Shown: piece by piece, positions 1 through 29,289 of the stretch
How positions within the stretch are numbered: position 1 is the first letter of the stretch
Layout: the number at the start of each line of letters is the position of its first letter
From: an uncultured Candidatus Saccharibacteria bacterium
GTDB lineage: Bacteria > Patescibacteriota > Saccharimonadia > Saccharimonadales > CAYLGV01
Assembly: GCA_964394925.1 (NCBI GenBank)
Contig: CAYMZG010000001.1
Coordinates: 261,656 to 319,735 of the forward strand
DNA: 58,080 nucleotides
Direction of reading: 5' to 3'
Made by a program: the position numbers and the translations under genes
Notes under the pieces: generated by a model
The model's input: only the letters and a program-made list of their open reading frames with translations
What the model was told of the DNA's origin: nothing
The model's database searches: none

Positions 1-1711
1 CCACATCAATTTTCAGGCCAGCCTTGGGTAAAGTGGGGTACTTGACTCTTAAAAGAGCCGCCGCCACAGCATTAACATGACCTCGGCTCAAATCGTCATA
101 CCAATCATGCGCATCGTCGTTTAACTGACGTGCTATAAGGTAGTGTTTCATGAACTTACGGAAAGCAATCATTAACGAATCATTCGCCGAGAGCCCACCA
201 GCATACAATGCTCCCAAGCCCGAAATGGCATGTCCTAGGGAACGATCGGCCAGTTGCCAATAATCGGTGTAGTCTGGTATCTGCTTGATGTGCAGAATGC
301 CTTCGCTTAACCGTCCACGACAGTTTGCCAGTTCCCAGGCATTGGCCGCATCTAAGCGTTCCATAATCTCCGAGGCCTCATCATGAAATGATCGAACGCT
401 CGGCAAGACCCGCACGAGCCGTTCGCTCAAGAAACGAAGACAAACATTGGCTGCCGGTAATAGTCGCGGGTCGCCTTCCCCATCTAAAAAATCGTCATAT
501 GTCGTGTAAGCCATCCAGCCCCAGACGTTAATGCATGATAACTGTTGTAATACTTCGGGCGACACCTTAGCTTGGAATGACTTTGCAACCAACATTGGCA
601 GCATAACTATTTGGGAATCGGTATCCTGCTTATTTATCTGCCCATAAATCGCTTGTAAGCCATCCTTAAGTTCGACTTGCCTTATTAAGGCGATGCGCTC
701 AAGAATGGCAGCCTGCACCTCTTGCTCGAATTGTTGTTTAGGACGCTTGGTTGTTCTTGCAGGTGTATTCTTTTGGAGCTTACTTTCATACAGCGCAAGT
801 GCCTCCATGCACAATGATGTTGATAACGCTCGTGATGCACCGTAGCGAGTTCTGCCATCGACCGACGGATCAGCGCAAAATGCCTCCGCTTCCCAGCCAC
901 CATCTGTTTGCTGTAAATTGATGAGGTACTCGACCGCTGGCTGCAATTGCCGATGATCGTAGCCCAGCCTCAGCAAGCTTGTTATAGCCAGGGCTGTGCG
1001 TTGAGGATGACGCCAAGCTGCGCCATGTTTGCGGGTTATCAGCTTTTCGATTAGATTCTGCTGATGATCACCCGTATACCAACCTGCAACGAAATTAATA
1101 ATTGGGTAGATGTTGGCATAATATGGTGAGCTCAGCTTATTAGCGGCAACTGCTTGTTCAATCAGGTCAGTGATTGATGACAGTTCCACCCCTTGCCGAG
1201 AGAGAAACCGGGCGATATTTGCGTTAACCACCAAATCGACGTCATTCCACGCAGGTTTTGATGATGTGGTAAGCCATGTTTTATACGGACCACCCTCGTG
1301 CTGCTCAGTACGTATGAGCAACATTGCAATACGTGCGAGTGTGCTCGGAGTGAATAGCTCAGGTTTTTCAGTATATAGGGCAGCAAGTGCACAAAATGTA
1401 TCATCCAAATCATCCGGATATGGCTTTGTTTGGTGCTCATTCGATGTCCTATCCCAGTAATTAAATGACCATTCTTCACCTTTTTGATCAATCAAGAAAT
1501 TGGTGATGCGCGCCTTTATATTCATCACCTCATCAGCCTGTACATGCTGCAATGCCAGCAACACCAAGCTTGGGAAAAACGTTGTTTGATATATTCGATC
1601 ACCTTCTTTTGCAAACTTTGTCAGTAGTGATACCGACTCAAAGCCCCCACTTTCGAGCTGTGTTTGTGCCAAGTACTGAGCAGCTTTCTTTAGGACTCGT
1701 GACGGTATCAT
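1..1711 (-). CDS. partial two-domain protein (C-terminus beyond window edge): N-terminal prenyltransferase/terpene-cyclase-like alpha-alpha toroid repeats fused to an isoprenoid-synthase-like domain with Asp-rich motifs
   Basis: Absent from the supplied ORF track because it runs off the window. Manual minus-strand translation from ATG at 1711 stays open for about 570 codons to position 1. Four spaced Q/E-x3-GG-aromatic type repeats (AQTQLESGGF, IDQKGEEWSF, RTEQHEGGPY, NLQQTDGGW), then YDDFLD and NDDAHDWYDD. The ATG overlaps the kinase stop (ATGA, 1708-1711). Confidence 0.6.
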   Translation of the reverse strand, partial: MIPSRVLKKAAQYLAQTQLESGGFESVSLLTKFAKEGDRIYQTTFFPSLVLLALQHVQADEVMNIKARITNFLIDQKGEEWSFNYWDRTSNEHQTKPYPDDLDDTFCALAALYTEKPELFTPSTLARIAMLLIRTEQHEGGPYKTWLTTSSKPAWNDVDLVVNANIARFLSRQGVELSSITDLIEQAVAANKLSSPYYANIYPIINFVAGWYTGDHQQNLIEKLITRKHGAAWRHPQRTALAITSLLRLGYDHRQLQPAVEYLINLQQTDGGWEAEAFCADPSVDGRTRYGASRALSTSLCMEALALYESKLQKNTPARTTKRPKQQFEQEVQAAILERIALIRQVELKDGLQAIYGQINKQDTDSQIVMLPMLVAKSFQAKVSPEVLQQLSCINVWGWMAYTTYDDFLDGEGDPRLLPAANVCLRFLSERLVRVLPSVRSFHDEASEIMERLDAANAWELANCRGRLSEGILHIKQIPDYTDYWQLADRSLGHAISGLGALYAGGLSANDSLMIAFRKFMKHYLIARQLNDDAHDWYDDLSRGHVNAVAAALLRVKYPTLPKAGLKIDV

Positions 1712-3084
1712 GACAATGGAATCCTTATGTTAAAACAGGTGCCCTTTCGCTTTGTGCTGCTCACCGTTATGGTGCCGCCAAACTCCTCTTCAATCGTGCG
1801 TTTAGTAATTGTGAGGCCGAGTCCGATCCCCCTGATTGACTGTTTTGTTGTGTAAAACGGATCGAAGATATGCACAATTTCAGCCTTTGGGATGCCGATA
1901 CCATGGTCAATGACGGTGATCTCAACTAAGTCACCAAGTCGCTCTACATTGATGAGAATTGGTTGGTTTGAGGCCACCAACAATGTCTCGTAGGAGTCGA
2001 TGGCATTTGCAAGCAAGTTTGCAATCACTTGATCGAATTTGACACCATCTCCATGTATCACTAGCGTCTTGTCCGCCTTCACCGATATAGTCACGTGCAT
2101 CGCATTAGCCTTGGGGTGCATCACGCCAACCACACGCTTGATCTCTTGGGCGACATTAAAATCACCCACTTCACTTTCTCGGCGCAGTTGGCGACGAGCA
2201 TTTTGCACATATTGATCCATGAAGCTGATACTCTCATGTAACTGATCATAGAGTGCCGAGGAGTGTTTATCTTTTATCAATTCAAGATTTAAAACAGCTG
2301 AGGTAAGGGGGTTGGCCAATTCGTGAAGCAATGTTGAGCTAATTCTACCGAACTCGGCAAAACGATTTAACTCCTCAAGCTTTTCAATTTGCGCTTGTTC
2401 TAGCTCTCTGGTGCGTTCACGTACTCGAACCTCGAGGCGATTACGCTCAACACGCAGGGCATGCTCGGAGCGACGGGCTCGTGCCAGCGACTGCTGAATT
2501 TGCTTACTTGATAATCGTGAAACCAGTACCACGATCGAAAAAGTAAAACCATATACGATCACATCGTTATAGCCACCAGTTGTATGCATCCATGCGGTAT
2601 CGAATTGGATATGCCCTACGGCACTCAGGTGTTCTATCACCAACAGACTTATTGTGGCAGCAGCAGCCATATAAAGCGCGCCCCGAGACTCCAGCAGTAC
2701 GCCCGCAACCACAATTATTAAACAGTAAGTCAGAACGCCTTGCGGCAATAATATGCCCCACCGGAAAATTGGATAGGTGCTAATACAAAAGAAGAAGATC
2801 AGATAAATAATGGCTGCTAAACGGTAATAGCCACGCTTTGAAGCAGCCAGTAGTGATATGAAAAAACAAACTATAAGTATCATCGCCCATAGGGGGATGG
2901 TTGCGTATCTCGTATTTGTTGTGAAGTTACTAATAATTTCCGACAATAACGCCAAGCCAGCCAGAATGATTGTGCCGGAGACAAGCACGTTGAAAATATA
3001 GGCGCGGCGGCGGTCGTCTTCACTACGGGCATTTGGTTCAATTAAGAGATTGCGGAATTTGGTGAGTAATTTTGGTAGTCTCAT
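1708..3084 (-). CDS. membrane sensor histidine kinase
   Basis: 458-aa ORF. About 6 hydrophobic helices in the first 200 aa, a coiled-coil linker, H-box LHELANPL, and C-terminal ATP-binding boxes (DHGIGIP, GIGLGL). Confidence 0.9.
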   Translation of the reverse strand: MRLPKLLTKFRNLLIEPNARSEDDRRRAYIFNVLVSGTIILAGLALLSEIISNFTTNTRYATIPLWAMILIVCFFISLLAASKRGYYRLAAIIYLIFFFCISTYPIFRWGILLPQGVLTYCLIIVVAGVLLESRGALYMAAAATISLLVIEHLSAVGHIQFDTAWMHTTGGYNDVIVYGFTFSIVVLVSRLSSKQIQQSLARARRSEHALRVERNRLEVRVRERTRELEQAQIEKLEELNRFAEFGRISSTLLHELANPLTSAVLNLELIKDKHSSALYDQLHESISFMDQYVQNARRQLRRESEVGDFNVAQEIKRVVGVMHPKANAMHVTISVKADKTLVIHGDGVKFDQVIANLLANAIDSYETLLVASNQPILINVERLGDLVEITVIDHGIGIPKAEIVHIFDPFYTTKQSIRGIGLGLTITKRTIEEEFGGTITVSSTKRKGTCFNIRIPLS

Positions 3085-3098
3085 GATGTTTTTCTTGG

Positions 3099-3120
3099 CC
3101 CGGGAGATCGCACTCCCGGG
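3099..3120 (-). promoter_or_regulatory. perfect 8-bp GC-rich hairpin between the small ORF and the kinase start
   Basis: CCCGGGAG-ATCGCA-CTCCCGGG (3099-3106 pairs with 3113-3120). It lies 12 nt after the small-ORF stop and 14 nt before the kinase ATG. No U-tract follows on the minus strand. Confidence 0.5.
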
Positions 3121-3132
3121 TAATTTAGGTTG

Positions 3133-3249
3133 TTACGCGACGGATTGCCAAGGTGCAAATTCGTCTACGGCAGCGGCAGCAATTTGCGTTGCAGCAGCTG
3201 GCTTACGTGCCGCTTTACTCAGCAAAACGCTTTTCAGCAATTCACTCAT
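3133..3249 (-). CDS. 38-aa small protein (MSELLKSVLLSKAARKPAAATQIAAAAVDEFAPWQSVA)
   Basis: Below the ORF-track size cutoff. ATG at 3249 is preceded by AGGAGGG with a 6-nt spacer. It fills the 192-nt gap between the regulator and kinase genes. Confidence 0.45.
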   Translation of the reverse strand: MSELLKSVLLSKAARKPAAATQIAAAAVDEFAPWQSVA

Positions 3250-3276: not shown

Positions 3277-3954
3277 CTACGTACCTTCATACACATCCAG
3301 CTTGTAGCCCACGCCATGTACCGTTCGGATCACCTTGGTGCCGAAGGGTCGATCAATTTTATCCCGCAAGTGCTTAATGTGAACATCAACCACATTTGCC
3401 CATAAGTCTTCATTCATACCCCAGACGTGCTCAAGAATCATCGCCCGTGTGAGCGTCTGACCGGCATGTCGCATCATGTATTCAAACAGATCGAACTCCT
3501 TACGGCGCAAATCGATAATGACATCTTTGCGTCGAAGCGTCCGGGCGGCGGGGTCAAGGGATAAATCTCCCACTATTAACTCAGTAGCACCACTTCTATC
3601 AGATCGTCGCATTACTGCCCGCAGGCGTGCCGTCACTTCTTGCAAACTAAAGGGCTTAGTCATATAGTCATCGGCACCCATATCGAGTAAAGAAACTTTA
3701 TCGTCTAACAGGTCACGGCCGCTCAAGACAATAATTGGCATTGTTCGTTCGCGCCGACGCAGCTCACGACACACATCCTCGCCACTGATATCCGGTAGGT
3801 TCAGGTCAAGTAAGATCGCATCATAATCGATATGCTCAGCCTTGCGAACACCTTCGGTACCCGTATGCACAACATCAACGGCATACAACACCTTAAGGCC
3901 ACGTTGCAGGCTTTTGGCTACATGCTTGTTATCCTCGATGATGAGAATTCTCAT
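3277..3954 (-). CDS. OmpR/PhoB-family response regulator
   Basis: 225 aa. Receiver domain (MRILIIEDN, DLNLPD, MTKPF) plus a winged-helix C-terminus (IRTVHGVGYKL). Confidence 0.92.
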   Translation of the reverse strand: MRILIIEDNKHVAKSLQRGLKVLYAVDVVHTGTEGVRKAEHIDYDAILLDLNLPDISGEDVCRELRRRERTMPIIVLSGRDLLDDKVSLLDMGADDYMTKPFSLQEVTARLRAVMRRSDRSGATELIVGDLSLDPAARTLRRKDVIIDLRRKEFDLFEYMMRHAGQTLTRAMILEHVWGMNEDLWANVVDVHIKHLRDKIDRPFGTKVIRTVHGVGYKLDVYEGT

Positions 3955-5987: not shown

Positions 5988-6617
5988 CTACCTACTCAAC
6001 ACCAGCACAACTAGAACAGGGATGACGAAGTTATCAGCACCGTAAATGCTAATGTTCTCACCGAGGGTTGCAAGTGGTGGTAGGAGCAATAGAACCAGCC
6101 ACCCAGCTTGGCCAAACGAAGTAACTTGCAGTAACAATGCCGTTATGGTGAATGAAATGATATAAAACGCCAGAGAGCCAACCAGTGATTTCTTTTGCCC
6201 AAACACCTTGTAAGACGTTTTTTTGCCCCACCGTTTGCCCGCCAAGGCAGCACCGGCATCAGCCAAGCCCAGATGCAGCATAGCAGCCAAGAATACCCAT
6301 TCATTCGGTTGCATAAGAGCAATTGTTACCACGCCAGCAACGGTAAAGATATCGCCCCAGGAGATGCGTCCTACTTCGTGTAGCCACGAGAATAATTTCA
6401 ACCGCCGAACGATAATCATGTCTACGAGTAGCAATATTTCAAACAAGATTATGAGGTGAAAACTCACAAAGAATGGCGCAGCGCCAATGATCAGCGCATG
6501 TACTGCATGAAAGGTTTTGCGGGAGTATTCATTGCTCATATGCAACCGCACACGCACAAATTCACTGATAGCTAAGCACAGCAAACCAGCCAGAATAATA
6601 AGAAAAAAGTTTAGCAT
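5988..6617 (-). CDS. CTP-transferase-fold membrane protein (CdsA / dolichol kinase / phytol kinase family)
   Basis: 209-aa polytopic protein. Motif LADAGAALAGKRWGKK...GQKKSLVGS resembles the cytidylyltransferase family signature. Confidence 0.5.
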   Translation of the reverse strand: MLNFFLIILAGLLCLAISEFVRVRLHMSNEYSRKTFHAVHALIIGAAPFFVSFHLIILFEILLLVDMIIVRRLKLFSWLHEVGRISWGDIFTVAGVVTIALMQPNEWVFLAAMLHLGLADAGAALAGKRWGKKTSYKVFGQKKSLVGSLAFYIISFTITALLLQVTSFGQAGWLVLLLLPPLATLGENISIYGADNFVIPVLVVLVLSR

Positions 6618-10110: not shown

Positions 10111-10269
10111 ATGCGTTATGCGTCAATCTTCCTGACAATCCTATTCATTTGGGTCGCCGTTGTACTTATGGCCGCGACACGCCACAACGCTCACGAAATC
10201 TTCGAACTGTATCTCGCCGTCATGGCTTGCACGATTGCTCTGTTCGTAATTGGCTTTAGGAGTAAATGA
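10111..10269 (+). CDS. 52-aa two-TM small protein
   Basis: MRYASIFLTILFIWVAVVLMAATRHNAHEIFELYLAVMACTIALFVIGFRSK. Its stop overlaps the ubiB-like ATG (ATGA). Confidence 0.5.
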   Translation: MRYASIFLTILFIWVAVVLMAATRHNAHEIFELYLAVMACTIALFVIGFRSK

Positions 10270-11819
10270 ACAACAAGAGTATTGCCGCCATTAAGCGCTA
10301 CCGGACGAAGCGTCTGGCTCGCTTAGTTACGCGCGCGTACTACCTGCACAAACGCAGTAAAAATGACCAAATGTACCATGAAATCTATGAAACCTTCATG
10401 GATCTTGGTGGCGTCTATGTAAAGTTTTTGCAGGGTGTGCTGCTGCGCACCGAAGCAATGCGCCGCTGGCACAATCCTGATCGATTGAAAATTTTTGAAG
10501 ACCTCGACAGCGAGCCTATCGATGTAGTATCCATATTGCAGCGTGAGTTATCGAGTGAAAAGTTGAATCAAATCAAGGGCATACAACCACAACCCTTCGC
10601 TGCAGGCAGTTTTGGCCAGGTGTATTACGGAGAACATGCCGATGGTACGCCAATTATCATTAAAGTGCTCCGGCCGATGGTTCGCGAACTACTCAAGTAC
10701 GATCTAAAGCTGCTCGGTATGTTTGCCAAACGCTTTTACTCCAGCCTGCTACCTAATATGGATGTCAATTTTAACGATGCTGTTAAGGACTTCTCGGCGG
10801 CAACACTGCGTGAAACCGACTATGTTACCGAAGCTGGCTTTGCTAATGAACTCTACGAATACTATAAGGGCCACCCGAAACTAGTCATACCAAAAACATA
10901 TCTTGACCTCTGCACCCCAAACATTATTGTGCAACAGTACGTGGGCGGTTTGTCAGCAGCTCAAATTATCAAACTGATGCACCAAGGTGTTGATCCAAAG
11001 CAGTATGTGCTTGAGCAAATTGGCTCTGACCTAGATGAACAGCTCGAGACCCTCGGCTTTGAGGAATTGCTAGGGATCTTTCATTTGTCACGCATTCAGG
11101 GTGATCCGCATCCTGGTAATATTCGCTTACTGCCAAATAACCAAGTTGGCATGATTGACTTCGGAATCGCCGCCATGACGCCCCAAAACAAAGCTGCTTT
11201 TTTTGGTCTTATAACTGAATGGAACGAACTGTATCGCGATAATAATCGAATTGGTAACTTGTTCGAACAGTTTATTCGGTTCTTTGTAAGCGACCTGTAT
11301 CGTGCACTTAAAAAGCTCAGCAGTATGCGGAGCACTTCAAACGAGGAAAGCGACTATACGCGTCATGTAGGCAAGATTGCCCAAGAGACGTTTAGCAAAG
11401 CCGTCGGCACCAAAGATGTCTTGCCTATGCTCCAAGATGTGCGAGCCCTGCAAATTATTAACCAAATGGTCAACAAAGATAATCGATTTGGTCTGGTAAT
11501 GAAGCTCGAGGCATCCGACATGTTGCGCGCCGCTCAAACCTACATGGCGCTTGTCGAAACCATGGGACGTTTGAATGTTGTTATGCCGCGAGTCTTCAGT
11601 CGAGTGGTTGATCAAGTAAATAAAGATTTTCCAGGTCTGGCTCACCAGAGCGATGCCACCATGAGTGTTGGTCAGGCACTTGAGATTGTAACCAATTGGC
11701 TGGAGCGCATCGCCGAACGCGATCCAGTTCTGTTTAAGCAATTGCTGGAACGCATCCGTCCCCGTACAATACAAGATATTGCACCACCTAAAGTGCCCAC
11801 AAAACCTGCGAGCACATAA
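10266..11819 (+). CDS. ABC1/UbiB-family atypical protein kinase
   Basis: 517 aa. ABC1 signature region (AAGSFGQVY, IIKVLRP, DPHPGNI, IDFG). Confidence 0.85.
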   Translation: MNNKSIAAIKRYRTKRLARLVTRAYYLHKRSKNDQMYHEIYETFMDLGGVYVKFLQGVLLRTEAMRRWHNPDRLKIFEDLDSEPIDVVSILQRELSSEKLNQIKGIQPQPFAAGSFGQVYYGEHADGTPIIIKVLRPMVRELLKYDLKLLGMFAKRFYSSLLPNMDVNFNDAVKDFSAATLRETDYVTEAGFANELYEYYKGHPKLVIPKTYLDLCTPNIIVQQYVGGLSAAQIIKLMHQGVDPKQYVLEQIGSDLDEQLETLGFEELLGIFHLSRIQGDPHPGNIRLLPNNQVGMIDFGIAAMTPQNKAAFFGLITEWNELYRDNNRIGNLFEQFIRFFVSDLYRALKKLSSMRSTSNEESDYTRHVGKIAQETFSKAVGTKDVLPMLQDVRALQIINQMVNKDNRFGLVMKLEASDMLRAAQTYMALVETMGRLNVVMPRVFSRVVDQVNKDFPGLAHQSDATMSVGQALEIVTNWLERIAERDPVLFKQLLERIRPRTIQDIAPPKVPTKPAST

Positions 11820-14734: not shown

Positions 14735-15850
14735 TTAGTCTTGTACAGTATAGACAATTACACGCTTTTCATACTGATTCGTACGAACGTTAAAACGCCC
14801 ACTCGCAGTCATGAGATTTAGTCCCTGCTTTCCGGAGACGGCCGAATTCAGCACCTTGCGCATATCAAGGTTATCGAAATCTGCCTGCTCGGCACTCACA
14901 ACCGTGTAGGTAAGTAATTTGCCGTCGCCGCGCTCAATAGTCACCTTGTCACTTTTTTTAAGCGTACCAAGGCCATAAAAGACTCCTCGGTTAGATTGAC
15001 CAGCAACATGACCATCCAATAATATGGTACCGTTCTCACCTGGCAGGGAACTATTCTCATACCAACCAACGTCATAAATGTTTGTAGGCCCCTTAACACT
15101 GCCATTGCTGTCGGGCCCAACTCGACGAACTCTGGCATTTACGCCTATTCTATCAATCTTCAAATAGCGCGGCATATTGGCCGCAACGGTGTAACCCTTA
15201 ATATCGAGTGGTGGGTTATCTTCACTTGGCAAATCACTGCCAGACGTGCCATCGCTTGTACTCCCCGAACCCTTACTTGTCTGCTTGGCAAGCACTTGGG
15301 TTGGCCCAGAACTTCCGTTTATTTTTTTATAGACCACAAAGCCAGTTGTACTGGCCAATACCAATAAAAAGGCTGCTAAGCCTGCTGCAAGGTATGGTTT
15401 GAACGAGTGGTGTTTTTTAGGTCGATACTTCTTCGCAGATGCTTTTACAACTTGCCGACGAAGTACTCCCGAACGAGTTTGGCGCGGCAAGTGCGCCGAC
15501 CCACCAGTCGTACTTCGCTGCAGTGGAGTGGTGCGGATTTTTAAGACTGCGGGCTGTGCTTTGGCTTGATTGGTAGCGCTCGCAGATCGTAGTGGCGGAG
15601 CTGTTTGTTTATCTGCAATTTGATTGGACTGAACTTGGGCAGCAGCTGAGGTTGGTCGTTGACTAGTCGGTGTGGACGTTAGTGGTGACAGTGGCAACTG
15701 TTGCGTCGACTCTGTTTGGCTCGTGGTTGGCCGTATTGGGCGAATATCTTGATCGAGACCATTAGATACATGGGCGCGCCGAACTCGAGGGCTGCGCATG
15801 CGCCCCCGTACTGTTGGATGATCGAGATGAACGCGCGACTGTCGCTCCAT
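14735..15850 (-). CDS. sortase-fold protein lacking the catalytic cysteine (class E/F-like)
   Basis: Disordered N-terminus, one TM, then IDRIGVNARV..GWY..PGENGTILLDGHV..LNLMTASGRF..YEKRVIVY. AGGAG lies upstream of the ATG. The protein has no Cys anywhere. Confidence 0.65.
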   Translation of the reverse strand: MERQSRVHLDHPTVRGRMRSPRVRRAHVSNGLDQDIRPIRPTTSQTESTQQLPLSPLTSTPTSQRPTSAAAQVQSNQIADKQTAPPLRSASATNQAKAQPAVLKIRTTPLQRSTTGGSAHLPRQTRSGVLRRQVVKASAKKYRPKKHHSFKPYLAAGLAAFLLVLASTTGFVVYKKINGSSGPTQVLAKQTSKGSGSTSDGTSGSDLPSEDNPPLDIKGYTVAANMPRYLKIDRIGVNARVRRVGPDSNGSVKGPTNIYDVGWYENSSLPGENGTILLDGHVAGQSNRGVFYGLGTLKKSDKVTIERGDGKLLTYTVVSAEQADFDNLDMRKVLNSAVSGKQGLNLMTASGRFNVRTNQYEKRVIVYTVQD

Positions 15851-16089
15851 GACGCTCCTGTCGTGTCATTACTGGCGTGACGCTTTAACAAGCGTAACGT
15901 TCACTTCACCCTAATGAGTAAAGAAGATGTAGTATCCATGCGGTTTGTATCAGAAACCAGCTATGCCACTCTCTAGTCAAAACTGCACTTTATTGTAACT
16001 TTTTGTTGTTAATTAATACTACAGTTGTTACTATAGTTACCTCTTATGGTTTGTCAAGCACTTTCGCTTCTGGTGTAGTACAGATTACC

Positions 16090-16479
16090 TCACTTTTTCT
16101 GCTGTGTAATATGCACCGGGGCACCATATTCTGGCAGACCAATTTTATCTGTTTCACCATGCAACAGACGCGTTATGCCCTGTTGAATCCAATCTGATTG
16201 CGTCGCAACAAGCGGGATGCCTAGGCTGTACGCCAGGGCATTGGCCACGCTCAGCCCAATACGAAGGCCCGTGAAACTGCCTGGACCCTGATATACAACA
16301 ATACCATCCACATCTGCAAACGATAATGCTTGGTCTTTGAGCAAATCTTGAACGCGAGTATGAATTGTTTCCGCTAATTGTCGATGCGCCTCCCAGATCA
16401 CATAGGCGACTTGGTGGCTGTCGTTATAGATACCAAGCTCTGATTCTGGTTTATCGCTACGGATGGTCAGTATATTCAT
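16090..16479 (-). CDS. tsaB: tRNA t6A biosynthesis protein TsaB, short form (129 aa)
   Basis: VVYQGPGSFTGLRIGLSVANALAYSLGIPL signature. Only the N-terminal half of a typical TsaB is present. Confidence 0.8.
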   Translation of the reverse strand: MNILTIRSDKPESELGIYNDSHQVAYVIWEAHRQLAETIHTRVQDLLKDQALSFADVDGIVVYQGPGSFTGLRIGLSVANALAYSLGIPLVATQSDWIQQGITRLLHGETDKIGLPEYGAPVHITQQKK

Positions 16480-16934
16480 TGCAAGATATACTCCAGTGAC
16501 TCGGGAAATTTACACACCAGCGTGCGACCAGTGTCGGAAGTCTTGTCGATAGAGATGGTTAGTCGATGGGCTGGCAGCACGTTTTGCACGATATCGCCCC
16601 ATTCCACCACCACTATTCCATGTGGATCATCGGCCGCATCATGCAGCTCATGTGCCATCAAGCCAGCTTCTTGTAAGCGGTAGAAATCAAAGTGGTAGAG
16701 CGTCTTGCCGTTAGCTTGATACGTTTTCGAGATGGTGAACGTTGGACTGGCAACCACATCATGGCTGCCCAAGCCCTTGGCAATTCCCCTGGTTAGGGTG
16801 GTCTTACCACCACCAAGATCGCTCTGAAGCTCAATCACCTCACCGCCCCTCAGCCTGGCTCCCAATTGCTCGCCGAACGCCTCTGTTGCCTTTGAGTTTT
16901 CGCACTGAAAGCGCAATGTCTTGACGGTATTCAT
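16476..16934 (-). CDS. tsaE: tRNA t6A biosynthesis ATPase TsaE
   Basis: P-loop SDLGGGKTTLTRG and PTFTI motif. Start at 16934 (MNTVKT) or 16943. The stop overlaps the tsaB start. Confidence 0.85.
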   Translation of the reverse strand: MNTVKTLRFQCENSKATEAFGEQLGARLRGGEVIELQSDLGGGKTTLTRGIAKGLGSHDVVASPTFTISKTYQANGKTLYHFDFYRLQEAGLMAHELHDAADDPHGIVVVEWGDIVQNVLPAHRLTISIDKTSDTGRTLVCKFPESLEYILQ

Positions 16935-18234
16935 ATATCCCATATACTACCGTGCTCAGTCCAACACCAGCAAGCACAAGCGGATGAAGTTTGCTACCGA
17001 CAGACGCATTACCGGAACCATTCTTAGAAGTATTGGATGAATTGGATTTTTTTGTCGAAGCTGGCGTTTTTGCTTTCTTAGTCGACGCTTTAACCACCTT
17101 GGATGGCTTTGCGGCACTCTTGGCCACAGGTTTTGATGTCTTAGAGGTTTTGGGTGACTTCGAGACTGATGAAGCCTGCTTGCTGGCACCAACCGCCTCT
17201 GTTAGGGCGTTGATGCTGCCCGGTGTTGGCGTGGCCGTCCATTGCCAGCTATCGTCGATGAATGCCCATGCCTTTCCGGCATCCGCCGCATCATACACGT
17301 CAGTCTCTGAAACTACTGCACCACGGGCATCGAGAAGACGCGCCCGTCCGCCAGAATTTGATAACAAAAGGTGTGTTTCAAGAACCGTAAATGCCACATA
17401 TGAATCGGGCTCAAGTATATGTTCTGGGAACGTATATGAATAGGTAAAATTGTTGCCTGACTGTAGCTTGTAGTCTTTTAGGTTCACTGTGTGCGACGAA
17501 AGATTGTGAATCTCGATATACTCGTTCGATTCATCGTTCTGCGGGGCGGCTGGATTAGGTAGTAGTTCCGAGATTTCCAAAACGTCCGGCGAAGGCGTTG
17601 GGACGACCTGTTCCGCAGGCTCAAGTGTCGGTGTTGGCGTTACCCCGAGCGCACTGCCTATTGGGTTGGGCTCTGACAACTGCCATTGGGCGGGTGTCAT
17701 AACATACTCTCCCTGTGGCGAGTGAGCGCGCGCAATAACTTGGTTTTTAGCTGCGGTCGTACTCGGCATATACACGATACTCCCCGTTGCCTGCACGACC
17801 GCAGCGGTCCAATGGAGTTCATCAATAATTTGACCATTTTTATCGGTTAACTGGAGAGTCCCGCCCGCGTCTGCCAGGCTTGTGAATGGCGATTTCTGAG
17901 CTAGGCTCATCTTAGAGTCTTGTTCATTCTTGGCAAGCAAGTAGTAGTGCTTCGGCTCAAGCTGGCCTTGAGCAATTACAAAACGGGTAAACGATTGATC
18001 AGCCGCTGGCACCGACGTATTGGCATAACCGATCGAATAATCGTTTAACGATACCGGCACGTCTGCAGGGTTATATAGCTCGATATACTCATCAAAGCCA
18101 GTTGTGTCATTACGCACCTTGACCTCGCTGATTATAAGAGTTGGTGCGTCTGCCTGAAGATGACCGAGCATCATGCCAACCAACACAACCGCAAGCACAC
18201 AACACACATACCAAGAAAGTTTTACGATTTTCAT
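16840..18234 (-). CDS. membrane-anchored protein with two lamin-tail (LTD) domains and a K/S/T-rich stalk
   Basis: N-terminal signal/TM. LIISEVKV..DEYIELYNP and LEISELLPNP..NEYIEIHN LTD signatures. Low-complexity SKxxK region. C-terminal TM. Confidence 0.75.
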   Translation of the reverse strand: MKIVKLSWYVCCVLAVVLVGMMLGHLQADAPTLIISEVKVRNDTTGFDEYIELYNPADVPVSLNDYSIGYANTSVPAADQSFTRFVIAQGQLEPKHYYLLAKNEQDSKMSLAQKSPFTSLADAGGTLQLTDKNGQIIDELHWTAAVVQATGSIVYMPSTTAAKNQVIARAHSPQGEYVMTPAQWQLSEPNPIGSALGVTPTPTLEPAEQVVPTPSPDVLEISELLPNPAAPQNDESNEYIEIHNLSSHTVNLKDYKLQSGNNFTYSYTFPEHILEPDSYVAFTVLETHLLLSNSGGRARLLDARGAVVSETDVYDAADAGKAWAFIDDSWQWTATPTPGSINALTEAVGASKQASSVSKSPKTSKTSKPVAKSAAKPSKVVKASTKKAKTPASTKKSNSSNTSKNGSGNASVGSKLHPLVLAGVGLSTVVYGIYEYRQDIALSVRKLKGNRGVRRAIGSQAEGR

Positions 18235-19517: not shown

Positions 19518-20552
19518 CTAGTCTTTGTTGACACTATCGGTAATCTGTTTGGCAATGGCGTCGAGAACCTTGGGATTTTCGTCGAGGTAGACTTTGGCAG
19601 CTTCACGTCCTTGCGCAATCTTTTCGCCGTTATAGCTATACCAAGCTCCTGACTTTTCGACGATGTCTCGGGCAGCTGCAATGTCAAGAATGTCACCACT
19701 TTTGCTAATTCCTTGGTTGTACATAATATCGAATTCAGCCTCTCGGAAAGGGGGTGCAATCTTGTTCTTGACCACCTTCACTCTTGTGCGGTTGCCAACC
19801 ACATTTTCACCCTGTTTTATTTGAGCAATACGACGAATATCCATGCGTACTGACGCATAAAACTTTAAGGCGTTACCGCCAGTAGTTGTTTCTGGGTTGC
19901 CAAACATCACGCCAATCTTCATGCGGATCTGGTTAATGAAAATAACCGTGGCCTTAGAGCGTGAAATAATGCCCGTTAGCTTGCGGAGCGCCTGGCTCAT
20001 TAAGCGGGCTTGCAAACCCATATGGCTATCACCCATGTCACCTTCTATTTCAGCACGAGGTACGAGCGCCGCCACCGAGTCAACAACAATCAAATCAACT
20101 GCGTTGCTACGCACCAGCGTCTCGACAATCTCAAGCGCCTGTTCGCCGTTATCCGGCTGTGACAGCAACAAATTATCGACATCGACACCGATGCGCTTGG
20201 CATAGGCGGGGTCCAGGGCATGCTCAGCGTCAATGAATGCTGCAGTGCCACCCTGTTTTTGAATTTCAGCAATGGCATGCAGAGTGAGTGTCGTTTTACC
20301 ACTTGATTCAGGACCATAAATCTCAATGACACGACCCTTTGGGATACCACCACCGAGCGCAAGGTCAAGCGAAATACTCCCCGTTGGAATGCACTCTACC
20401 TGAGTAGCGTGCGCCTCGCCGAGCTTCATAATGGAACCCTTGCCGAACTGTTTTTCAATTGTTTCTAGTGCAAGACCAAGCGCCTTGGAGCGACCACTCG
20501 CATCACTCGATGTTTCGCTCGAAGCCTTAGTCGTTGTTTTTTTGTCAGCCAT
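19518..20552 (-). CDS. recA: recombinase RecA
   Basis: [10 protein letters not shown] Walker [10 protein letters not shown] and IFINQIR motifs. GGAGGG lies upstream of the ATG. Confidence 0.97.
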
Positions 20553-21350: not shown

Positions 21351-23165
21351 ATGCGTATATCTGATGCTCTAGTCGAAAAGTTATTGGTTGATGCTGGTAA
21401 GTTGTCCAACGAGCAGCTTACTGACCTCAAAGAGCGGGAAAAGGCCGAGAAGAAACCGCTCCAAGACCTGGTGATTCAGGGTAATATCACCAATGAGAAG
21501 GATCTCACCAAACTGTATTCCGATGAGATTGATATCCCCTTTATTGAGCTCAACCCGAAAGAGATCAAGCGTGAGGTACTCCGCCTCGTCCCCGAGCGGA
21601 TTGCCCGCCAATATAGCGTGGTGCTGTATGGCGTTGAAGAAGATGGTACAAAATTGTTGGCCATGGCCGACCCTGATGATATTCAGGCCATAAACTTCCT
21701 GCAGAAACAGCTCGGGAGCAACCTGAAGGTGTCGGTAGCTACGAATAGCAACATCCAGGCCGCCCTTGATCAGTACCGAGGCAATATCGGCAATGAGCTC
21801 ACTAAGGTCATCTCACCAGATGGTACTGAAGAAGACGAGGAAGAGGATGACATTGATGAGTCAGACCTAGCTGAAGACTCGCCCATTGCCCAGACGGTTA
21901 ACCTGATTATTGAGTATGCGATCCGCTCGGGTGCGAGTGATATTCACATCGAGCCACGGGACGGTTATGTGAGTGTGCGTTACCGCGTTGATGGCATGCT
22001 GCGTGAGGCTAACAAACTGCCACATAAGGTGCATGGCGCACTCGTGTCGCGTATTAAGATTCTCAGTAATCTCAAGATTGATGAGCGCCGTGCTCCACAA
22101 GACGGTCGCTTTAAGATACAGCTTGGGGGCGAAACTTATGCTCTCCGTGTTTCAACCCTGCCAATCACCGAAGGTGAAAAAGTGGTAATGCGTATTTTGA
22201 ATGAAACCTCTAAGGCTGCTACGCTTGAGGAATTGGGCTACTGGGGAGTTAGCCTCGACAGTATCAATAAAGCAATTGCTCAGCCACACGGCATGATCCT
22301 CGTGACAGGCCCAACGGGTTCGGGTAAATCAACCAGTCTGTTTAGTATTTTAAGCCTACTTAACAAGCCCACTATAAATATCTCGACTGTTGAAGACCCC
22401 GTTGAATACAAGATCCCCGGTGCCAATCAGGTACAGCTCAATCCAAAAGCAGGTATGACCTTTGCCTCTGGCCTGCGCGCCCTCATGCGACAAGATCCTA
22501 ACGTCATCATGGTTGGCGAGGTTCGTGATGGCGAAACGGCTGACATTGCCGTGCAAGCCGCCCTCACCGGTCACCTTGTGTTTGCAACCCTACACACCAA
22601 CAACGCCGCCACCTGTCTACCCCGCTTACTCGATATGGGTATTGAGCCATTCCTGATAGCCAGTACTATTCGCGCCGTTGTAGGTCAGCGCCTTGTGCGC
22701 CGCCTATGTGTAGATTGCCGGGAAGAATTCACACCAGATGCCGCCACCCTCAAACAGGTGGCCGAAATCTTTGGTACCGCCAATGCGGCCGTAATGAAGC
22801 ATATCCACCAGCTTGAAGAACAAGCCCTCGAGGGCGGCATTGGTAAAAGCAACAGTGGTAAGAGCCAACTTGATACCTCGAAATTATCCACCACCGACTC
22901 AAAGATCAGTCGCATGTTCAAGGCCCACGATGATGGCTGTGACACCTGTGGCCACAGTGGCTATAAGGGTCGAATGGGTATCTATGAGGTTTTGAGCAAC
23001 TCAGTTGAGGTTCAGAAGATGATTGTTGCCAACGGTACCAGCGACGAAATACAGGAACAATGTATCAAGGACGGCATGGTCACTATGCAGCTGGATGGCT
23101 TCATTAAGGCACTGCGTGGCCAAACAACCATTGAAGAAATTTTGCGAGTAACCACCGAGAAATAA
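21351..23165 (+). CDS. pilB: type IV pilus assembly ATPase PilB/GspE family
   Basis: 604 aa. Walker A GPTGSGKST, Asp and His boxes, tetracysteine motif (CxxC...CxxC). Confidence 0.93.
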   Translation: MRISDALVEKLLVDAGKLSNEQLTDLKEREKAEKKPLQDLVIQGNITNEKDLTKLYSDEIDIPFIELNPKEIKREVLRLVPERIARQYSVVLYGVEEDGTKLLAMADPDDIQAINFLQKQLGSNLKVSVATNSNIQAALDQYRGNIGNELTKVISPDGTEEDEEEDDIDESDLAEDSPIAQTVNLIIEYAIRSGASDIHIEPRDGYVSVRYRVDGMLREANKLPHKVHGALVSRIKILSNLKIDERRAPQDGRFKIQLGGETYALRVSTLPITEGEKVVMRILNETSKAATLEELGYWGVSLDSINKAIAQPHGMILVTGPTGSGKSTSLFSILSLLNKPTINISTVEDPVEYKIPGANQVQLNPKAGMTFASGLRALMRQDPNVIMVGEVRDGETADIAVQAALTGHLVFATLHTNNAATCLPRLLDMGIEPFLIASTIRAVVGQRLVRRLCVDCREEFTPDAATLKQVAEIFGTANAAVMKHIHQLEEQALEGGIGKSNSGKSQLDTSKLSTTDSKISRMFKAHDDGCDTCGHSGYKGRMGIYEVLSNSVEVQKMIVANGTSDEIQEQCIKDGMVTMQLDGFIKALRGQTTIEEILRVTTEK

Positions 23166-23167
23166 AT

Positions 23168-24382
23168 ATGAAGTTTAGCTACACCGCCACTAATAAAGAA
23201 GGTCACACCGTACAGGGAACCGTTGAAGCCGTAGATCGTAATGGAGTATTAACGGCTCTGCACAAACAGGGCCTTCGACCTGTTGTAGTTAAACTAGATA
23301 GTGCTAAGAGTAGCGGTCGCGGTCGGCATAAACGAGTGAAATCTAAAGAGATAGTTATTTTCACCCGTCAGCTCTCCACAATGATCTCGGCAGGCGTGCC
23401 ACTTACCCGAGCACTTTCTACTATGCAAACGCAGACAGAGAGTGCCTATTTTAAACAGGTGGTTGGCAATATTACCAAAGATATTGAAGGCGGTATGCCC
23501 CTCGCTGACGCGTTTGCCAAATATCCCAATGTATTCTCTGAGGTCTACATTAATATGATTCGTGCCGGTGAAGCTGGTGGTATTCTCGATGACATTCTCA
23601 AACGACTTGCCAGTCAAGTAGAGCAAGATGCCAGTATGCGCAAAAAGATAAAAAGCGCCATGATGTACCCGATCGTAATCTTGAGCATAACGGTGATTGC
23701 CTTTTTTGGCATTATGATTTTTGTGATTCCCAAGATTGCCAAAATATTGCAAGACCTCGGTGGTCCAAATGCTAAGTTGCCGGTGTACACACAGGCCATG
23801 CTGAACATTAGTGCCTTTATTCAGCACAATATCATCCCGATAGTTATCCTAAGTGTTGGCGGAAGCTACGTACTGCGACGCTACATCAAGACACCGAAGG
23901 GTAAATACAAATTCCATTCCCTCCTGCTACGCACACCCGTTCTAAAAGGTATCATCATCAAGATCGCCATTGCCCGTTTCTCACGCACTTTTGCTTCGCT
24001 TATGTCAGCGGGTGTCAGTGTGCTTGATTCACTCGAAGTAACCGGTGGCGCTATTGGTAATAAAGTAATCGAGGAAGAGCTCAAAGACGCCGCCAAAGAA
24101 GTAAGAAACGGTAAATCATTGAGTGAACCACTATCTAACAGCAAACACTTCCCTCCAATTGTTGGTCAAATGCTCGCTATTGGGGAAGAAACTGGCCAAA
24201 TTGATACGATTCTCGTGAAGGTAGCTGACTTTTATGAAGAAGAGGTGGAAACCATGATTGATGGCCTGAGCTCGCTGATTGAACCACTTATGATCGTCGT
24301 TCTTGGCGCGCTAGTTGGTGTGATTGCAGCGAGCGTTATGGGTCCAATTGCCTCTCTCAGCAAAAACATTGGTAACAACTAG
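23168..24382 (+). CDS. pilC: type IV pilus platform protein PilC/GspF family
   Basis: 404 aa. Duplicated GspF domains and three TM segments. Confidence 0.92.
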   Translation: MKFSYTATNKEGHTVQGTVEAVDRNGVLTALHKQGLRPVVVKLDSAKSSGRGRHKRVKSKEIVIFTRQLSTMISAGVPLTRALSTMQTQTESAYFKQVVGNITKDIEGGMPLADAFAKYPNVFSEVYINMIRAGEAGGILDDILKRLASQVEQDASMRKKIKSAMMYPIVILSITVIAFFGIMIFVIPKIAKILQDLGGPNAKLPVYTQAMLNISAFIQHNIIPIVILSVGGSYVLRRYIKTPKGKYKFHSLLLRTPVLKGIIIKIAIARFSRTFASLMSAGVSVLDSLEVTGGAIGNKVIEEELKDAAKEVRNGKSLSEPLSNSKHFPPIVGQMLAIGEETGQIDTILVKVADFYEEEVETMIDGLSSLIEPLMIVVLGALVGVIAASVMGPIASLSKNIGNN

Positions 24383-24431
24383 TAGTCTCTCTAGTATAAT
24401 AAGTATAAGCGTAAGAAGTTAGCGCTAATGT

Positions 24432-24878
24432 ATGCGTAAAATCCAGAGGGTGGAATTGAAACTCAAAGCATTAAACCAGGCCGGTTTCTCTCTTGTGGAA
24501 CTGCTTATCACCATGATTGTGATTGGTGTACTGTTTGGTGCCTTCCTCGTAACCTTTACGTCGATTCAAAACATTAATAAAAAGGCACTCGATATCAATA
24601 CTGCCAGCACCATTGCCTACGCCAAGGTGCAGGAATATGAGAATAAGAACTTTAGCGCATTGCCAAATACTACGCCAACAAACTCACTGGTACAGGTGGA
24701 AGATTTTAGTAGTAGCCTGCCGAATAGCCTTGAATCACCTCGCGTTGCCACCGTATCTGTCAACACTGTCTCTTCCAGCCTAAAGCAGGTTGTGGTAAAT
24801 ATCCAGTTCGGTAGTGGCCCCTCTCAGCGTACCATTCAATATGCCGACTTTATTCAGAAGAATGGATTGGGGCGATGA
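24432..24878 (+). CDS. prepilin-type N-terminal cleavage/methylation protein (minor pilin)
   Basis: NQAG/FSLVELLITMIVIGVL. Confidence 0.7.
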   Translation: MRKIQRVELKLKALNQAGFSLVELLITMIVIGVLFGAFLVTFTSIQNINKKALDINTASTIAYAKVQEYENKNFSALPNTTPTNSLVQVEDFSSSLPNSLESPRVATVSVNTVSSSLKQVVVNIQFGSGPSQRTIQYADFIQKNGLGR

Positions 24879-25597
24879 TGCGACACAGTAAAGAACAAGG
24901 CTTTACTCTATTAGAGATTTTAATCATGTCGCCAATTGTGATGCTGACCATTGTGATTATCATTAGTTACCTGTTTAGCCAGTATGGTCAGTTGATCCAG
25001 CAAGGCTCACAGCTCAACTTGAATGTTGAGGCTCAAAACATCACGTTTAGCATGCAAGACGATCTGTTCTTTGCCAACTCCTACGCCAGCGCTATAAATA
25101 CTAATTTGGTCGACAGTAACCAGCCAACTGGTGGCTGGAAAGCTGCCACAACCCCACAGACTCTCATTGTGTCCGTACCTGCTGAGACGGCCAACCGCCG
25201 CTCGGCCTCCAGGCAACCCGTATACATTAATACCGTCGGCTGCGATCCAGCTGTTCTGACCGATAATTCACCCCTTTACAACAATGTCATTTACTTCGTA
25301 AGTGGCACCAACCTATACAAGCGCTACCTTACGGCACCTTCCACCATGAACACTTGTGGTACAAGCTTCCAAAAGCAAACCTGTCCGAACGGTAAAGTTA
25401 CTTCAAGCTGTCCTGCTGATCGTTTGCTAACTGATAAACTTTCGAGCTTTACGGTCACCTATTACGATACGAGCAATACCGTTACAACCACCCCCGACTT
25501 GGCTGAAAAGGTAAAAATCGACATACAGCTGAAAGACAAAGCTTTTGCCGAAGACATTACCAGCTCGAGCAGCATAACGTTAAGGAAGATTAACTAA
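24875..25597 (+). CDS. pilin-like protein (PilW-like minor pilin)
   Basis: KEQG/FTLLEILIM. ATGA overlap with the preceding gene. Confidence 0.65.
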   Translation: MMRHSKEQGFTLLEILIMSPIVMLTIVIIISYLFSQYGQLIQQGSQLNLNVEAQNITFSMQDDLFFANSYASAINTNLVDSNQPTGGWKAATTPQTLIVSVPAETANRRSASRQPVYINTVGCDPAVLTDNSPLYNNVIYFVSGTNLYKRYLTAPSTMNTCGTSFQKQTCPNGKVTSSCPADRLLTDKLSSFTVTYYDTSNTVTTTPDLAEKVKIDIQLKDKAFAEDITSSSSITLRKIN

Positions 25598-27504: not shown

Positions 27505-27571
27505 TCACGATGAAATACACCCGAGAAATGCTATACTATAACAAAGCCGCTTACGCTTTTGATGGGCAAGC

Positions 27572-28639: not shown

Positions 28640-29289
28640 TCAATCTTTTGCCACCCGACGTCAAAGAAAACATGATGTACGCACGTCGTAACACACGTTT
28701 GCGCCACTGGATTGTGGCAGTCTTCTTTGGCTTGGCTGGTATTTTCATGATTGTTGGAGCAGGACAGCTCTACTTACAACAGTCGATTCATGCCTATAAT
28801 CAACAGGTCGCGACTGGCGAGGCCGAGCTAAAAGCACAGAAGCTTGATGAAACACAGGCTAAAGTACAGCAGCTCAGTGGTGATTTAAAACTGGTTGTGT
28901 CAGTACTACAAAAAGAGATTCTATTCTCTAAGTTGCTATCTAAGATTGGCGCCGCACTGCCGCCTGGTTCTGTCTTGACAAATTTAAGCATTAACAAAGT
29001 ACAGGGCGGTATTGACTTGCAAGCCGCCACCACCGATAGCCAAACTGCCACACAGCTACAGCTTAATCTCCAAGACCCTAAGAACCAGATCTTTGACAAA
29101 GCCGACCTTATCAGCATCCAGTGCGCATCGAATGCCAAAGCAACGAGTGGGGACCCGCTCAAGTCTCAGTACCCGTGCACGGCACAACTGCGCGCATTAT
29201 TTGCCAAGAATAACTCTTTCACCTTCATTAGCGGCACACCAGCTGGAAGTGCAAGCGGCTCAACTAGCACAGGAGGAGCCAAGCCATGA
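28636..29289 (+). CDS. pilN: PilN-like pilus assembly protein
   Basis: MINLLPPD N-terminus, single TM, coiled coil. ATGA overlap. Confidence 0.75.
   Translation: MINLLPPDVKENMMYARRNTRLRHWIVAVFFGLAGIFMIVGAGQLYLQQSIHAYNQQVATGEAELKAQKLDETQAKVQQLSGDLKLVVSVLQKEILFSKLLSKIGAALPPGSVLTNLSINKVQGGIDLQAATTDSQTATQLQLNLQDPKNQIFDKADLISIQCASNAKATSGDPLKSQYPCTAQLRALFAKNNSFTFISGTPAGSASGSTSTGGAKP

Follow-up and report, generated by a model that had tools for sequence, protein, structure and literature searches.

Organization and conservation of the locus

The 58,080-nucleotide stretch of contig CAYMZG010000001.1 analysed here (the window), from an uncultured Candidatus Saccharibacteria bacterium, begins within a reverse-strand gene for a two-domain protein, the enzyme that is the main subject of this work. 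The gene is the last of a cassette in which it is preceded by an OmpR-type response regulator, an open reading frame (ORF) of 35-40 amino acids (aa) and a histidine kinase, in that order, and the same arrangement is found in about 85 loci of Patescibacteria (Table 1). The original prediction, made from the letters of the window, had described an ORF of more than 570 codons that leaves the window and had escaped the ORF list. Translation of the reverse strand of positions 1-1711 gave 570 stop-free codons from an ATG at 1711-1709, and an identical, complete protein of 644 aa in the protein database (P0001) supplied the C-terminus; the ORF lister had indeed omitted the frame, because it runs off the window. 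The AF2 model of the enzyme has a predicted local distance difference test score (pLDDT) of 94.8 and a predicted template modelling score (pTM) of 0.84, and a hydropathy scan found no membrane segments in the protein.

Table 1. Features of the cassette in the window
Feature	Position	Strand	Basis or remark
Beta/alpha enzyme gene	1..1711	-	Codons 1-570 of 644; last 74 codons beyond the window
Beta domain, residues 1-312, predicted monodomain class II (protonation-type) terpene cyclase barrel	776..1711	-	Profile and Foldseek
DDLDDT, class II DxDD motif, residues 100-105 (PYPDDLDDT 97-105)	1397..1414	-	D101 and D103 invariant
Y197-Y198	1118..1123	-	Y198 invariant; aligned with AsDMS Y427, hydrogen-bond partner of the catalytic Asp
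Alpha domain, residues ~322-644 (about 322-570 in the window), all-helical trans-isoprenyl diphosphate synthase fold	1..748	-	Domain model and Foldseek
DDFLD, residues 406-410, FARM-like	482..496	-	DSSP: C-terminal end of helix 385-409
QLNDDAHDWYDD, residues 529-540, SARM-like with preceding Gln	92..127	-	DSSP: C-terminal end of helix 512-542
Sensor histidine kinase, 5-6 hydrophobic segments, without large external domain	1708..3084	-	HATPase_c, weak HisKA PF00512, weak 6TM_PilS (Pfam); hydropathy
GC-rich hairpin CCCGGGAG-loop-CTCCCGGG	3098..3121	-	11 nt past the peptide stop, 14 nt ahead of the kinase start
38-aa ORF MSELLKSVLLSKAARKPAAATQIAAAAVDEFAPWQSVA, presumed precursor peptide	3133..3249	-	Invariant Trp codon 3148-3150
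OmpR-family response regulator, first cassette gene	3277..3954	-	Pfam Response_reg and Trans_reg_C; synteny

Conservation of the gene order was assessed by clustering the ORFs of 84 related loci together with those of the window (85 loci). The kinase cluster is present in 83 of these. Among the 83 loci with an ORF upstream of the enzyme, 77 have the kinase directly upstream, encoded on the enzyme's strand. In the window the kinase stop codon and the enzyme start codon share an ATGA at 1708-1711, and such a 4-nt overlap is common in the other loci as well. In 68 of the 85 loci the regulator was found too, as a rule immediately ahead of the kinase. A polyprenyl synthase (PF00348, E 1.5e-55) accompanies the cassette in 23 loci, and some loci carry a type 1 isopentenyl diphosphate (IPP) isomerase (224 bits against an NCBIfam cut-off of 127). 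No isoprenoid pathway gene had been seen in the window by the original prediction; a tblastn search of the window with the neighbouring polyprenyl synthases and IPP isomerases likewise returned nothing, although the gene lies at the very edge of the window, and the region downstream of it, which holds the synthase in other genomes, is not part of the window.

A family profile (A1) built from 78 homologues matched 3,796 representatives of clusters at 50% identity with E ≤ 0.001, of which 1,490 reach E ≤ 1e-30, and the best 150 matches are all full-length proteins of 570-700 aa. The homologues are without exception named 'hypothetical protein' in their source records and come from Saccharimonadales or Patescibacteria, in agreement with the earlier impression of a reduced genome. 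A scan of one genome per species found a relative in 211 species, which span Saccharibacteria, Davies-, Levy-, Shapiro-, Roizman-, Moran-, Colwell- and Doudnabacteria. Complete genomes, CP025011.1 for example, are also among the carriers of the cassette. Residues D101, D103, Y198, D406, D410, Q529, L530, D532, D536 and D540 are among those invariant in the 78 sequences, and the catalytic-type acidic residues of both domains are all retained across proteins only 33-63% identical.

Two further observations concern the family. The same cassette occurs in records titled Gammaproteobacteria, Vitreimonas, Methylomirabilota, Verrucomicrobiia and Dormiibacterota (L018, L020, L022, L026, L039, L076 and others), the probable cause being wrong labels or contamination of the bins, not a true occurrence outside the radiation. 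Separately, Pfam PF28380.1 appears in the precomputed annotation of the members P0012, P0028, P0038, P0039, P0042 and P0113.

The N-terminal domain, a predicted class II cyclase

Profile hidden Markov model (HMM) searches, structure prediction and Foldseek yielded a fold match for each of the two domains, and for the N-terminal barrel a profile match in addition. The original prediction had likened the first 300 aa or so to the toroid of prenyltransferase beta subunits and squalene-hopene-type cyclases, and both kinds of search place this region among the alpha/alpha-toroid terpene cyclase domains. When the family profile was compared with the PDB, the matches obtained were AsDMS (9mhs, E 7e-16, residues 13-309), squalene-hopene cyclase (4e-6) and AstC (2.5e-4). 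Foldseek matched the barrel to AsDMS (8e-11), to the 345-aa myxobacterial cyclases 8pak and 8paj (8pak 1e-9, TMt 0.64) and to MstE (6sbb, 1e-7), with a two-domain drimenyl diphosphate synthase and squalene-hopene cyclase among the further matches. The four repeats from which the likeness had been drawn were recovered in part: three of them follow the strict pattern Q/E-x3-GG-(x)-aromatic (QLESGGF at residue 18, EQHEGGPY at 136 and QQTDGGW at 267), whereas the fourth, QKGEEW at residue 76, is degenerate. Shuffling of residues 1-320 gave a mean of 0.01 strict motifs, and three or more were reached in none of 2000 shuffles.

The key and most diagnostic motif of the domain had been overlooked at that stage, namely the DxDD motif within PYPDDLDDT. 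In the family alignment, D101, D103 and Y198 fall on D331, D333 and Y427 of AsDMS (PdDLDdT on PDDLDTT; SpYY on RYY), and the AsDMS mutants D331A, D331N, D333N and Y427F are inactive (PMC12365925). The diphosphate-binding residues of AsDMS are not retained in the same manner. Mutation of R378 abolishes 96% of AsDMS activity and R380 is also critical (PMC12365925), and these two positions are taken by the invariant W155 and the conserved D157 in the present family. Likewise, no Arg or Lys within residues 1-312 is conserved in at least 90% of the 78 sequences. The absence of conserved diphosphate-binding basic residues from the barrel would fit a cyclase substrate that lacks a diphosphate head and carries a peptide in its place.

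By sequence and structure, residues 1-312 are matched best by AsDMS (a HAD phosphatase joined to a TC-beta domain; PDB 9M7D-F, 9MHS) and MstE (6SBB), which share with them a single alpha/alpha barrel without a gamma domain in which the catalytic Asp pair and the Tyr are kept. AsDMS differs in that it binds farnesyl diphosphate (FPP) via arginines, replaced here by Trp and Asp, and in that its partner domain is a phosphatase and not of prenyltransferase fold; MstE differs in being a stand-alone protein with a DxD motif and a prenylated benzoate as substrate. The single sequence missed the curated cut-offs of the class II cyclase models (SQHop_cyclase_C of Pfam, 17.7 against 26.1 bits; TIGR01787, 22.5 against 322.7 bits), and by its alignments the barrel is homologous to these families, only too diverged for their models. 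Taken from sequence and model, the domain is assigned as a monodomain (beta-only) class II cyclase with intact catalytic residues, for which cyclisation activity is predicted.

The C-terminal domain, a prenyltransferase-type fold

For the C-terminal part, the class I isoprenoid-synthase-like layout described earlier held up in the predicted structure: the domain has the alpha fold, and its two Asp-rich motifs each end a long helix. Both motifs are where they had been seen but for a slight shift, with YDDFLD at 482-499 (given before as 483-500) and NDDAHDWYDD at 92-121 (85-115), 126 residues apart. In the first Asp-rich motif (FARM), D406 and D410 are invariant and D407 is present in at least 90% of the sequences. 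In the second (SARM), Q529, L530, D532, D536 and D540 are all invariant, so that the motif reads QLxDDxxD. The spacing of D532, D536 and D540 mimics that of a DTE motif, yet it lies within the SARM-like QLxDDxxD.

A separate model of the alpha domain reached a pLDDT of 92.9. Its 50 best Foldseek matches all have the fold of trans-isoprenyl diphosphate synthases (IPPS), with template modelling (TM) scores of about 0.58-0.67 (best match 3aqb_B, E 3.5e-5, TM 0.66). They include hexaprenyl-, farnesyl-, geranylgeranyl-, solanesyl- and octaprenyl-diphosphate synthases, and terpene cyclases are not found among them. Judged by its model, it is fold alone that places the domain in the IPPS superfamily. 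Chains of Ord1 recur among the matches, at ranks 6, 8, 12, 15 and 22 (TM 0.63-0.66). Ord1 (PDB 9V4G-J) is an all-alpha-helical indole (free Trp) farnesyltransferase of the IPPS superfamily and has served as the structural reference for ComQ-family enzymes (preprint 10.64898/2026.08.29.745113; PMC13290415). It resembles the alpha domain in its FARM and in the Gln just upstream of the second motif, but is only 15-17% identical to it, acts on free Trp, and is a single-domain protein without a peptide partner. The Q-x-x-D-D-x-x-D spacing equals that of Q212/N215/D216/D219 in the ComQ-family enzyme StheQ, and a role of the Gln and the first Asp of the second motif has been described for Trp prenyltransferases (PMC13290415). 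Taken alone, a Gln-preceded second motif does not discriminate, as elongating synthases too have FQxxDDxxD.

The nature of the closest folds suggests a further possibility, that the alpha domain elongates dimethylallyl diphosphate (DMAPP) or FPP with IPP, and the barrel then cyclises the resulting prenyl diphosphate, as in the fungal PvCPS. Chain-elongating hexaprenyl, farnesyl and geranylgeranyl diphosphate synthases are indeed the nearest structures, and the alpha domain has both a FARM and a complete, Gln-preceded SARM. However, the true polyprenyl synthases encoded next to some cassettes (alignment A3) have an invariant GKxxR, an Arg five residues after the FARM (RRG) and a KT, whereas no invariant Lys and no GKxxR, RRG or KT was seen in the alignment of the alpha domains (A2). 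Chain elongation is disfavoured because the alpha domain lacks these basic motifs of the IPP site, a comparison made from conservation lists and not from superposition. Moreover, the window protein does not match PF00348, hhalign gave a probability of 2.7% for the alpha domain against 16 of the neighbouring polyprenyl synthases, and the activity would be redundant where a canonical polyprenyl synthase lies next door, as is often the case. Taken together, we regard elongation followed by cyclisation as improbable.

Two other identities were tried for this domain. The second Asp-rich motif resembles AxQLxNxxRDxxED, which we take to be the squalene/phytoene synthase motif; this identity was dropped, since no such enzyme is among the 50 best fold matches and PF00494 gave no match. 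A sesquarterpene route of the Bacillus YtpB/SqhC type, in which a class I reaction is followed by a class II reaction on the hydrocarbon, was likewise set aside, as neither the YtpB family nor its structures gave a match and the peptide described below would stay unexplained.

A short peptide with an invariant tryptophan

The 38-aa ORF of the window has an AGGAGGG ribosome-binding site 7 nt upstream of its start, and in related loci gene callers mark an ORF of 35-42 aa between regulator and kinase. A peptide HMM run on all stop-to-stop segments matched once in the 58-kb window; in 72 of the 84 loci it likewise matched once, and every match lies ahead of the kinase gene. Two of the loci without a match hold a weaker member at this position, and the rest, with one exception, have no upstream DNA. 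The consensus is M-x-x-L-x-K-K-x-L-T-D-K-x-A-R, followed by a variable middle and by P-W with 0-8 further residues (median length 37 aa); M1, L9, R15 and W34 are invariant, and conservation is confined to the leader and the Trp. That the ORF is coding is supported by the bias of nucleotide differences over the codon positions (3>1>2: 18,007, 11,993 and 8,206) together with Shine-Dalgarno (SD)-like sites, present in 53 of 70 loci. The stop codons in these 70 loci are TAA (39), TAG (30) and TGA (1).

No match to the peptide was obtained in Pfam or NCBIfam, the ComX family of Pfam included. In a database of 5.8 billion proteins the peptide profile found 66 members, of 34-42 aa except for one of 67 aa, with E values down to 2.5e-11, and none of the 66 carries a functional name. 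The reciprocal test led back to the cassette: two of these peptides sit in regulator-peptide-kinase-enzyme cassettes with enzymes of 654 and 661 aa, one of them followed by a polyprenyl synthase, and a third sits in a fragmented copy. A fragmented copy of the cassette (L087:5700-11997) contains an 88-aa regulator fragment, the peptide, a 215-aa kinase fragment and a 272-aa ORF, and beside them, in opposite orientation, a second set of regulator, kinase and 405-aa ORF in which no peptide was called; the arrangement may reflect decay of a duplicate or an assembly rich in indels.

The middle of the peptide varies between clades, being signal-peptide-like and hydrophobic in Microgenomates and Parcubacteria and polar or Ala-rich in Saccharibacteria. 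Its grand average of hydropathy ranges from -1.1 to +2.5, with values above 1.5 in 9 of 69 peptides. The difference hints at distinct export or anchoring routes. Because the hydrophobicity is not conserved, the idea that the peptide is a membrane helix or a signal peptide was rejected. The same data bear on the idea that the enzyme is a non-catalytic or sensing accessory, which would bind a polyprenyl lipid (e.g. undecaprenyl diphosphate or a host lipid) and report to the kinase, with the mini-ORF as a small membrane peptide that modulates the kinase, of the MgrB/SafA kind. The very tight coupling to the kinase gene, often by the ATGA overlap, would suit such a role, and in Microgenomates and Parcubacteria the peptide middle is hydrophobic enough for a membrane helix. 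Against it stand the invariance of the acidic residues in both domains at the low identities given above, the lack of any membrane segment in the enzyme, and the fact that only leader and Trp, not the hydrophobic stretch, are kept in the peptide; we give this idea hardly any weight.

Past the peptide gene, most of the related loci have a strong stem-loop (median ΔG -18.9 for 70 nt; z < -2 in 42 of 71). The hairpin of the window was rejected as an intrinsic terminator, as it has no T-run, and it may instead be a transcript-stabilising or attenuating element, as found after many precursor-peptide genes.

Comparison with known systems

The combination of an IPPS-fold enzyme, a short Trp-bearing peptide, a kinase and a regulator is known from ComQXPA of Bacillus, where the enzyme attaches a prenyl group to a Trp close to the C-terminal end of a short pre-peptide, and the product is sensed by a polytopic kinase with its regulator (PMC4008528). 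A ComQ-family pair, StheQ/StheX, has newly been characterised from the Chloroflexi (Sphaerobacter; preprint 10.64898/2026.08.29.745113). Common to these systems and the present cassette are the IPPS-fold enzyme with DDxxD and a short pre-peptide in which a Trp is all that is conserved near the C-terminus. With ComQXPA the cassette further shares four adjacent genes on the same strand, including a polytopic sensor kinase and a regulator, and the occurrence of overlaps between neighbours. The differences are nevertheless many. In Com nomenclature the gene order is A-X-P-Q here as opposed to Q-X-P-A; the enzyme carries a class II cyclase domain in addition, does not match PF00348 and has a full SARM, not a pseudo-SARM. 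ComX has 52-73 aa with its Trp within the last 5-10 residues, whereas the peptide here has 35-40 aa and agrees with ComX in the position of the Trp but not in length. ComP has HisKA_3 (PF07730) and 8-10 transmembrane segments, the present kinase being HisKA-type with 5-6; ComA is GerE-type (PF00196), in contrast to the OmpR-type regulator with Trans_reg_C found here. ComQXPA and StheQ/StheX are from Firmicutes and Chloroflexi, the cassette is from Patescibacteria. In sum, the cassette is an analogue of ComQXPA and not an orthologue.

The enzyme itself has a parallel in fused maturases of ribosomal peptides (RiPPs). ChrPC and NctPC (Hubrich et al., Chem 2024; summarised in PMC13290415) are described as prenyltransferase-cyclase fusions that place a C10-C20 chain onto a peptide Trp, which is followed by an MstE-like cyclisation. 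By its predicted architecture the present enzyme resembles ChrPC, where one polypeptide joins a trans-IDS-like prenyltransferase domain to an MstE-like monodomain class II cyclase, and in both cases the gene of a Trp-containing precursor adjoins the enzyme gene. The name ChrPC suggests that P precedes C, whereas the cyclase is N-terminal here; the likeness is one of architecture. In this respect the enzyme falls within the definition of ChrPC-type fused maturases. Known examples of this type are reportedly found in natural-product clusters with proteusin, Nif11-like or lasso-peptide precursors. The cassette differs from such clusters by its 35-40-aa peptide, its dedicated two-component system and its Patescibacteria-wide distribution.

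A barrel placed N-terminal to an alpha domain also occurs in plant-type alpha-beta(-gamma) synthases and in PvCPS, and the original prediction had leaned towards a plant-type terpene synthase. PvCPS in particular shares the fusion of a prenyltransferase-type alpha domain to a class II cyclase, but contains a beta-gamma pair, and its product is free copalyl diphosphate. In the plant-type enzymes the alpha domains are of terpene-cyclase type, and the beta domain is inactive in the alpha-beta enzymes; neither the plant-type synthases nor PvCPS are associated with a peptide or a two-component system. The two-domain description is borne out, and the plant-type assignment finds only partial support, with three points against it: the alpha domain matches prenyltransferase-type folds, the barrel keeps an invariant DxDD, and the gene lies in a cassette with a peptide and a two-component system.

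A free terpene could still be formed by a bifunctional synthase in which the barrel makes a bicyclic diphosphate from FPP or geranylgeranyl diphosphate and the alpha domain ionises it by class I chemistry to give a sesqui- or diterpene that might be a volatile or a membrane lipid, with the two-component system acting only in regulation of the operon. The beta-then-alpha order, the intact DxDD and DDxxD, the NSE/DTE-like spacing of D532/D536/D540, the sub-threshold Terpene_syn_C_2 matches of 5 of 25 members, and the polyprenyl synthase and IPP isomerase near some loci would all agree with this, and the conserved acidic residues of the barrel could hold a Mg2+-diphosphate. Conversely, none of the 50 best fold matches of the alpha domain is a terpene cyclase, the diphosphate-binding arginines of AsDMS have become Trp and Asp in a barrel without any conserved basic residue, and the co-conserved mini-ORF with its invariant C-terminal Trp is left unexplained. 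We consider a free-terpene product unlikely; peptide modification is preferred because the gene is locked in a cassette with the Trp mini-ORF and the two-component system.

Proposed function of the cassette

Considering sequence, model and analogy together, the enzyme is probably a cytoplasmic bifunctional peptide maturase, whose alpha domain would prenylate the Trp and whose beta domain would cyclise the attached chain. In the mechanism we propose, the alpha domain would bind a prenyl diphosphate via Mg2+ held by DDFLD, the donor being probably of C15-C20 and derived from the polyprenyl synthase that adjoins the gene in about a quarter of the genomes. With Q529 and D532 positioning the indole, the prenyl chain would be moved onto the invariant Trp of the 38-aa peptide, as in ComQ, StheQ, PalQ and the P domain of ChrPC. 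In the beta domain D103, helped by D101 and Y198, would then protonate the terminal double bond of the attached chain and so cyclise it to a polycyclic terpenoid, as do the MstE-like C domains of ChrPC and NctPC. The lipidated peptide would be released, with or without removal of the conserved N-terminal leader, and may be sensed by the polytopic histidine kinase, which would signal to the OmpR-type regulator. We infer the substrate, which of the two reactions comes first, the export step and the role of the product as ligand; that the kinase recognises the modified peptide is proposed with less confidence than the function of the enzyme.

Several results weigh against a peptide maturase. A profile search of the PDB with the isolated alpha domain gave no match, and no PF00348 match was found for the window protein when the whole protein was compared with Pfam and NCBIfam. 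With 25 isolated alpha domains, Pfam returned matches below the cut-off to Terpene_syn_C_2 (5 of 25, best E 0.008) and Terpene_synth_C (1 of 25, E 0.16), and to polyprenyl_synt PF00348 in a single domain (E 0.06); the low hhalign probability counts here as well. The placement of FARM and SARM in a pocket is based on their secondary-structure position and not on superposition, and the SARM is a full DDxxD as opposed to the pseudo-SARM (NDxxx) of ComQ and StheQ. In the barrel, E136, D157 and D159 are conserved and could bind a diphosphate via Mg2+, as in SsDMS, in which case the cyclase could act on a prenyl diphosphate. Finally, no protease or exporter is conserved in the cassette, and the kinase and regulator are of other subfamilies than ComP and ComA.

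Other genes in the window

Elsewhere in the window, type IV pilus genes (PilB-like ATPase, PilC and PilM) and ComEC occupy 21351-29933 and 33801-35258, and RecA is encoded at 19518-20552; these represent the DNA-uptake and pilus equipment typical of Saccharibacteria. A polytopic membrane protein of 209 aa, encoded 2 kb from the cassette (5988-6617, reverse strand), has a sub-threshold match to CTP_transf_1 (E 0.0012) and may be an isoprenoid-lipid enzyme similar to polyprenol or dolichol kinase. An ABC1/UbiB-type atypical kinase (E 4.7e-33) is found at 10266-11819 on the forward strand; elsewhere this family is tied to quinone and isoprenoid lipid metabolism, and quinone synthesis is not expected in the Saccharibacteria lineage. 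At 14735-18234 on the reverse strand, a sortase gene adjoins that of a protein with two lamin-tail domains, which is probably a sortase-anchored surface protein.

Implications

Patescibacteria (the Candidate Phyla Radiation, CPR) make up a large share of bacterial diversity, are mostly uncultured, have tiny genomes and an epibiotic life, and are thought to be poor in biosynthetic and signalling capacity. In the literature searched, no link was found between Patescibacteria, Saccharibacteria or CPR and terpene cyclases, ComX-like systems or a cassette of this kind, and a survey of type II cyclases does not mention any of the three. As a tentative extension of the enzyme assignment, the module, which occurs in Saccharibacteria, Microgenomates, Parcubacteria and Doudnabacteria, might be a Patescibacteria-wide, self-contained peptide-pheromone system, in which a ribosomal peptide bearing a polycyclic terpenoid on its C-terminal Trp would be made by the fusion enzyme and read by a dedicated intramembrane-sensing kinase.

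If this is true, Trp-prenylated pheromones would reach beyond Firmicutes and Chloroflexi, and prenyltransferase-cyclase peptide maturases would enter a signalling context. The enzyme would also add a new beta-alpha combination to the terpene synthase architectures, one in which both domains are apparently active, and the size of the enzyme and its 38-aa peptide suits direct heterologous testing. The pheromone itself would represent a new chemical class among those of bacteria and would amount to a native channel of cell-cell or symbiont-host communication in the Candidate Phyla Radiation, with the module as a testable handle on how Patescibacteria sense each other or their hosts.

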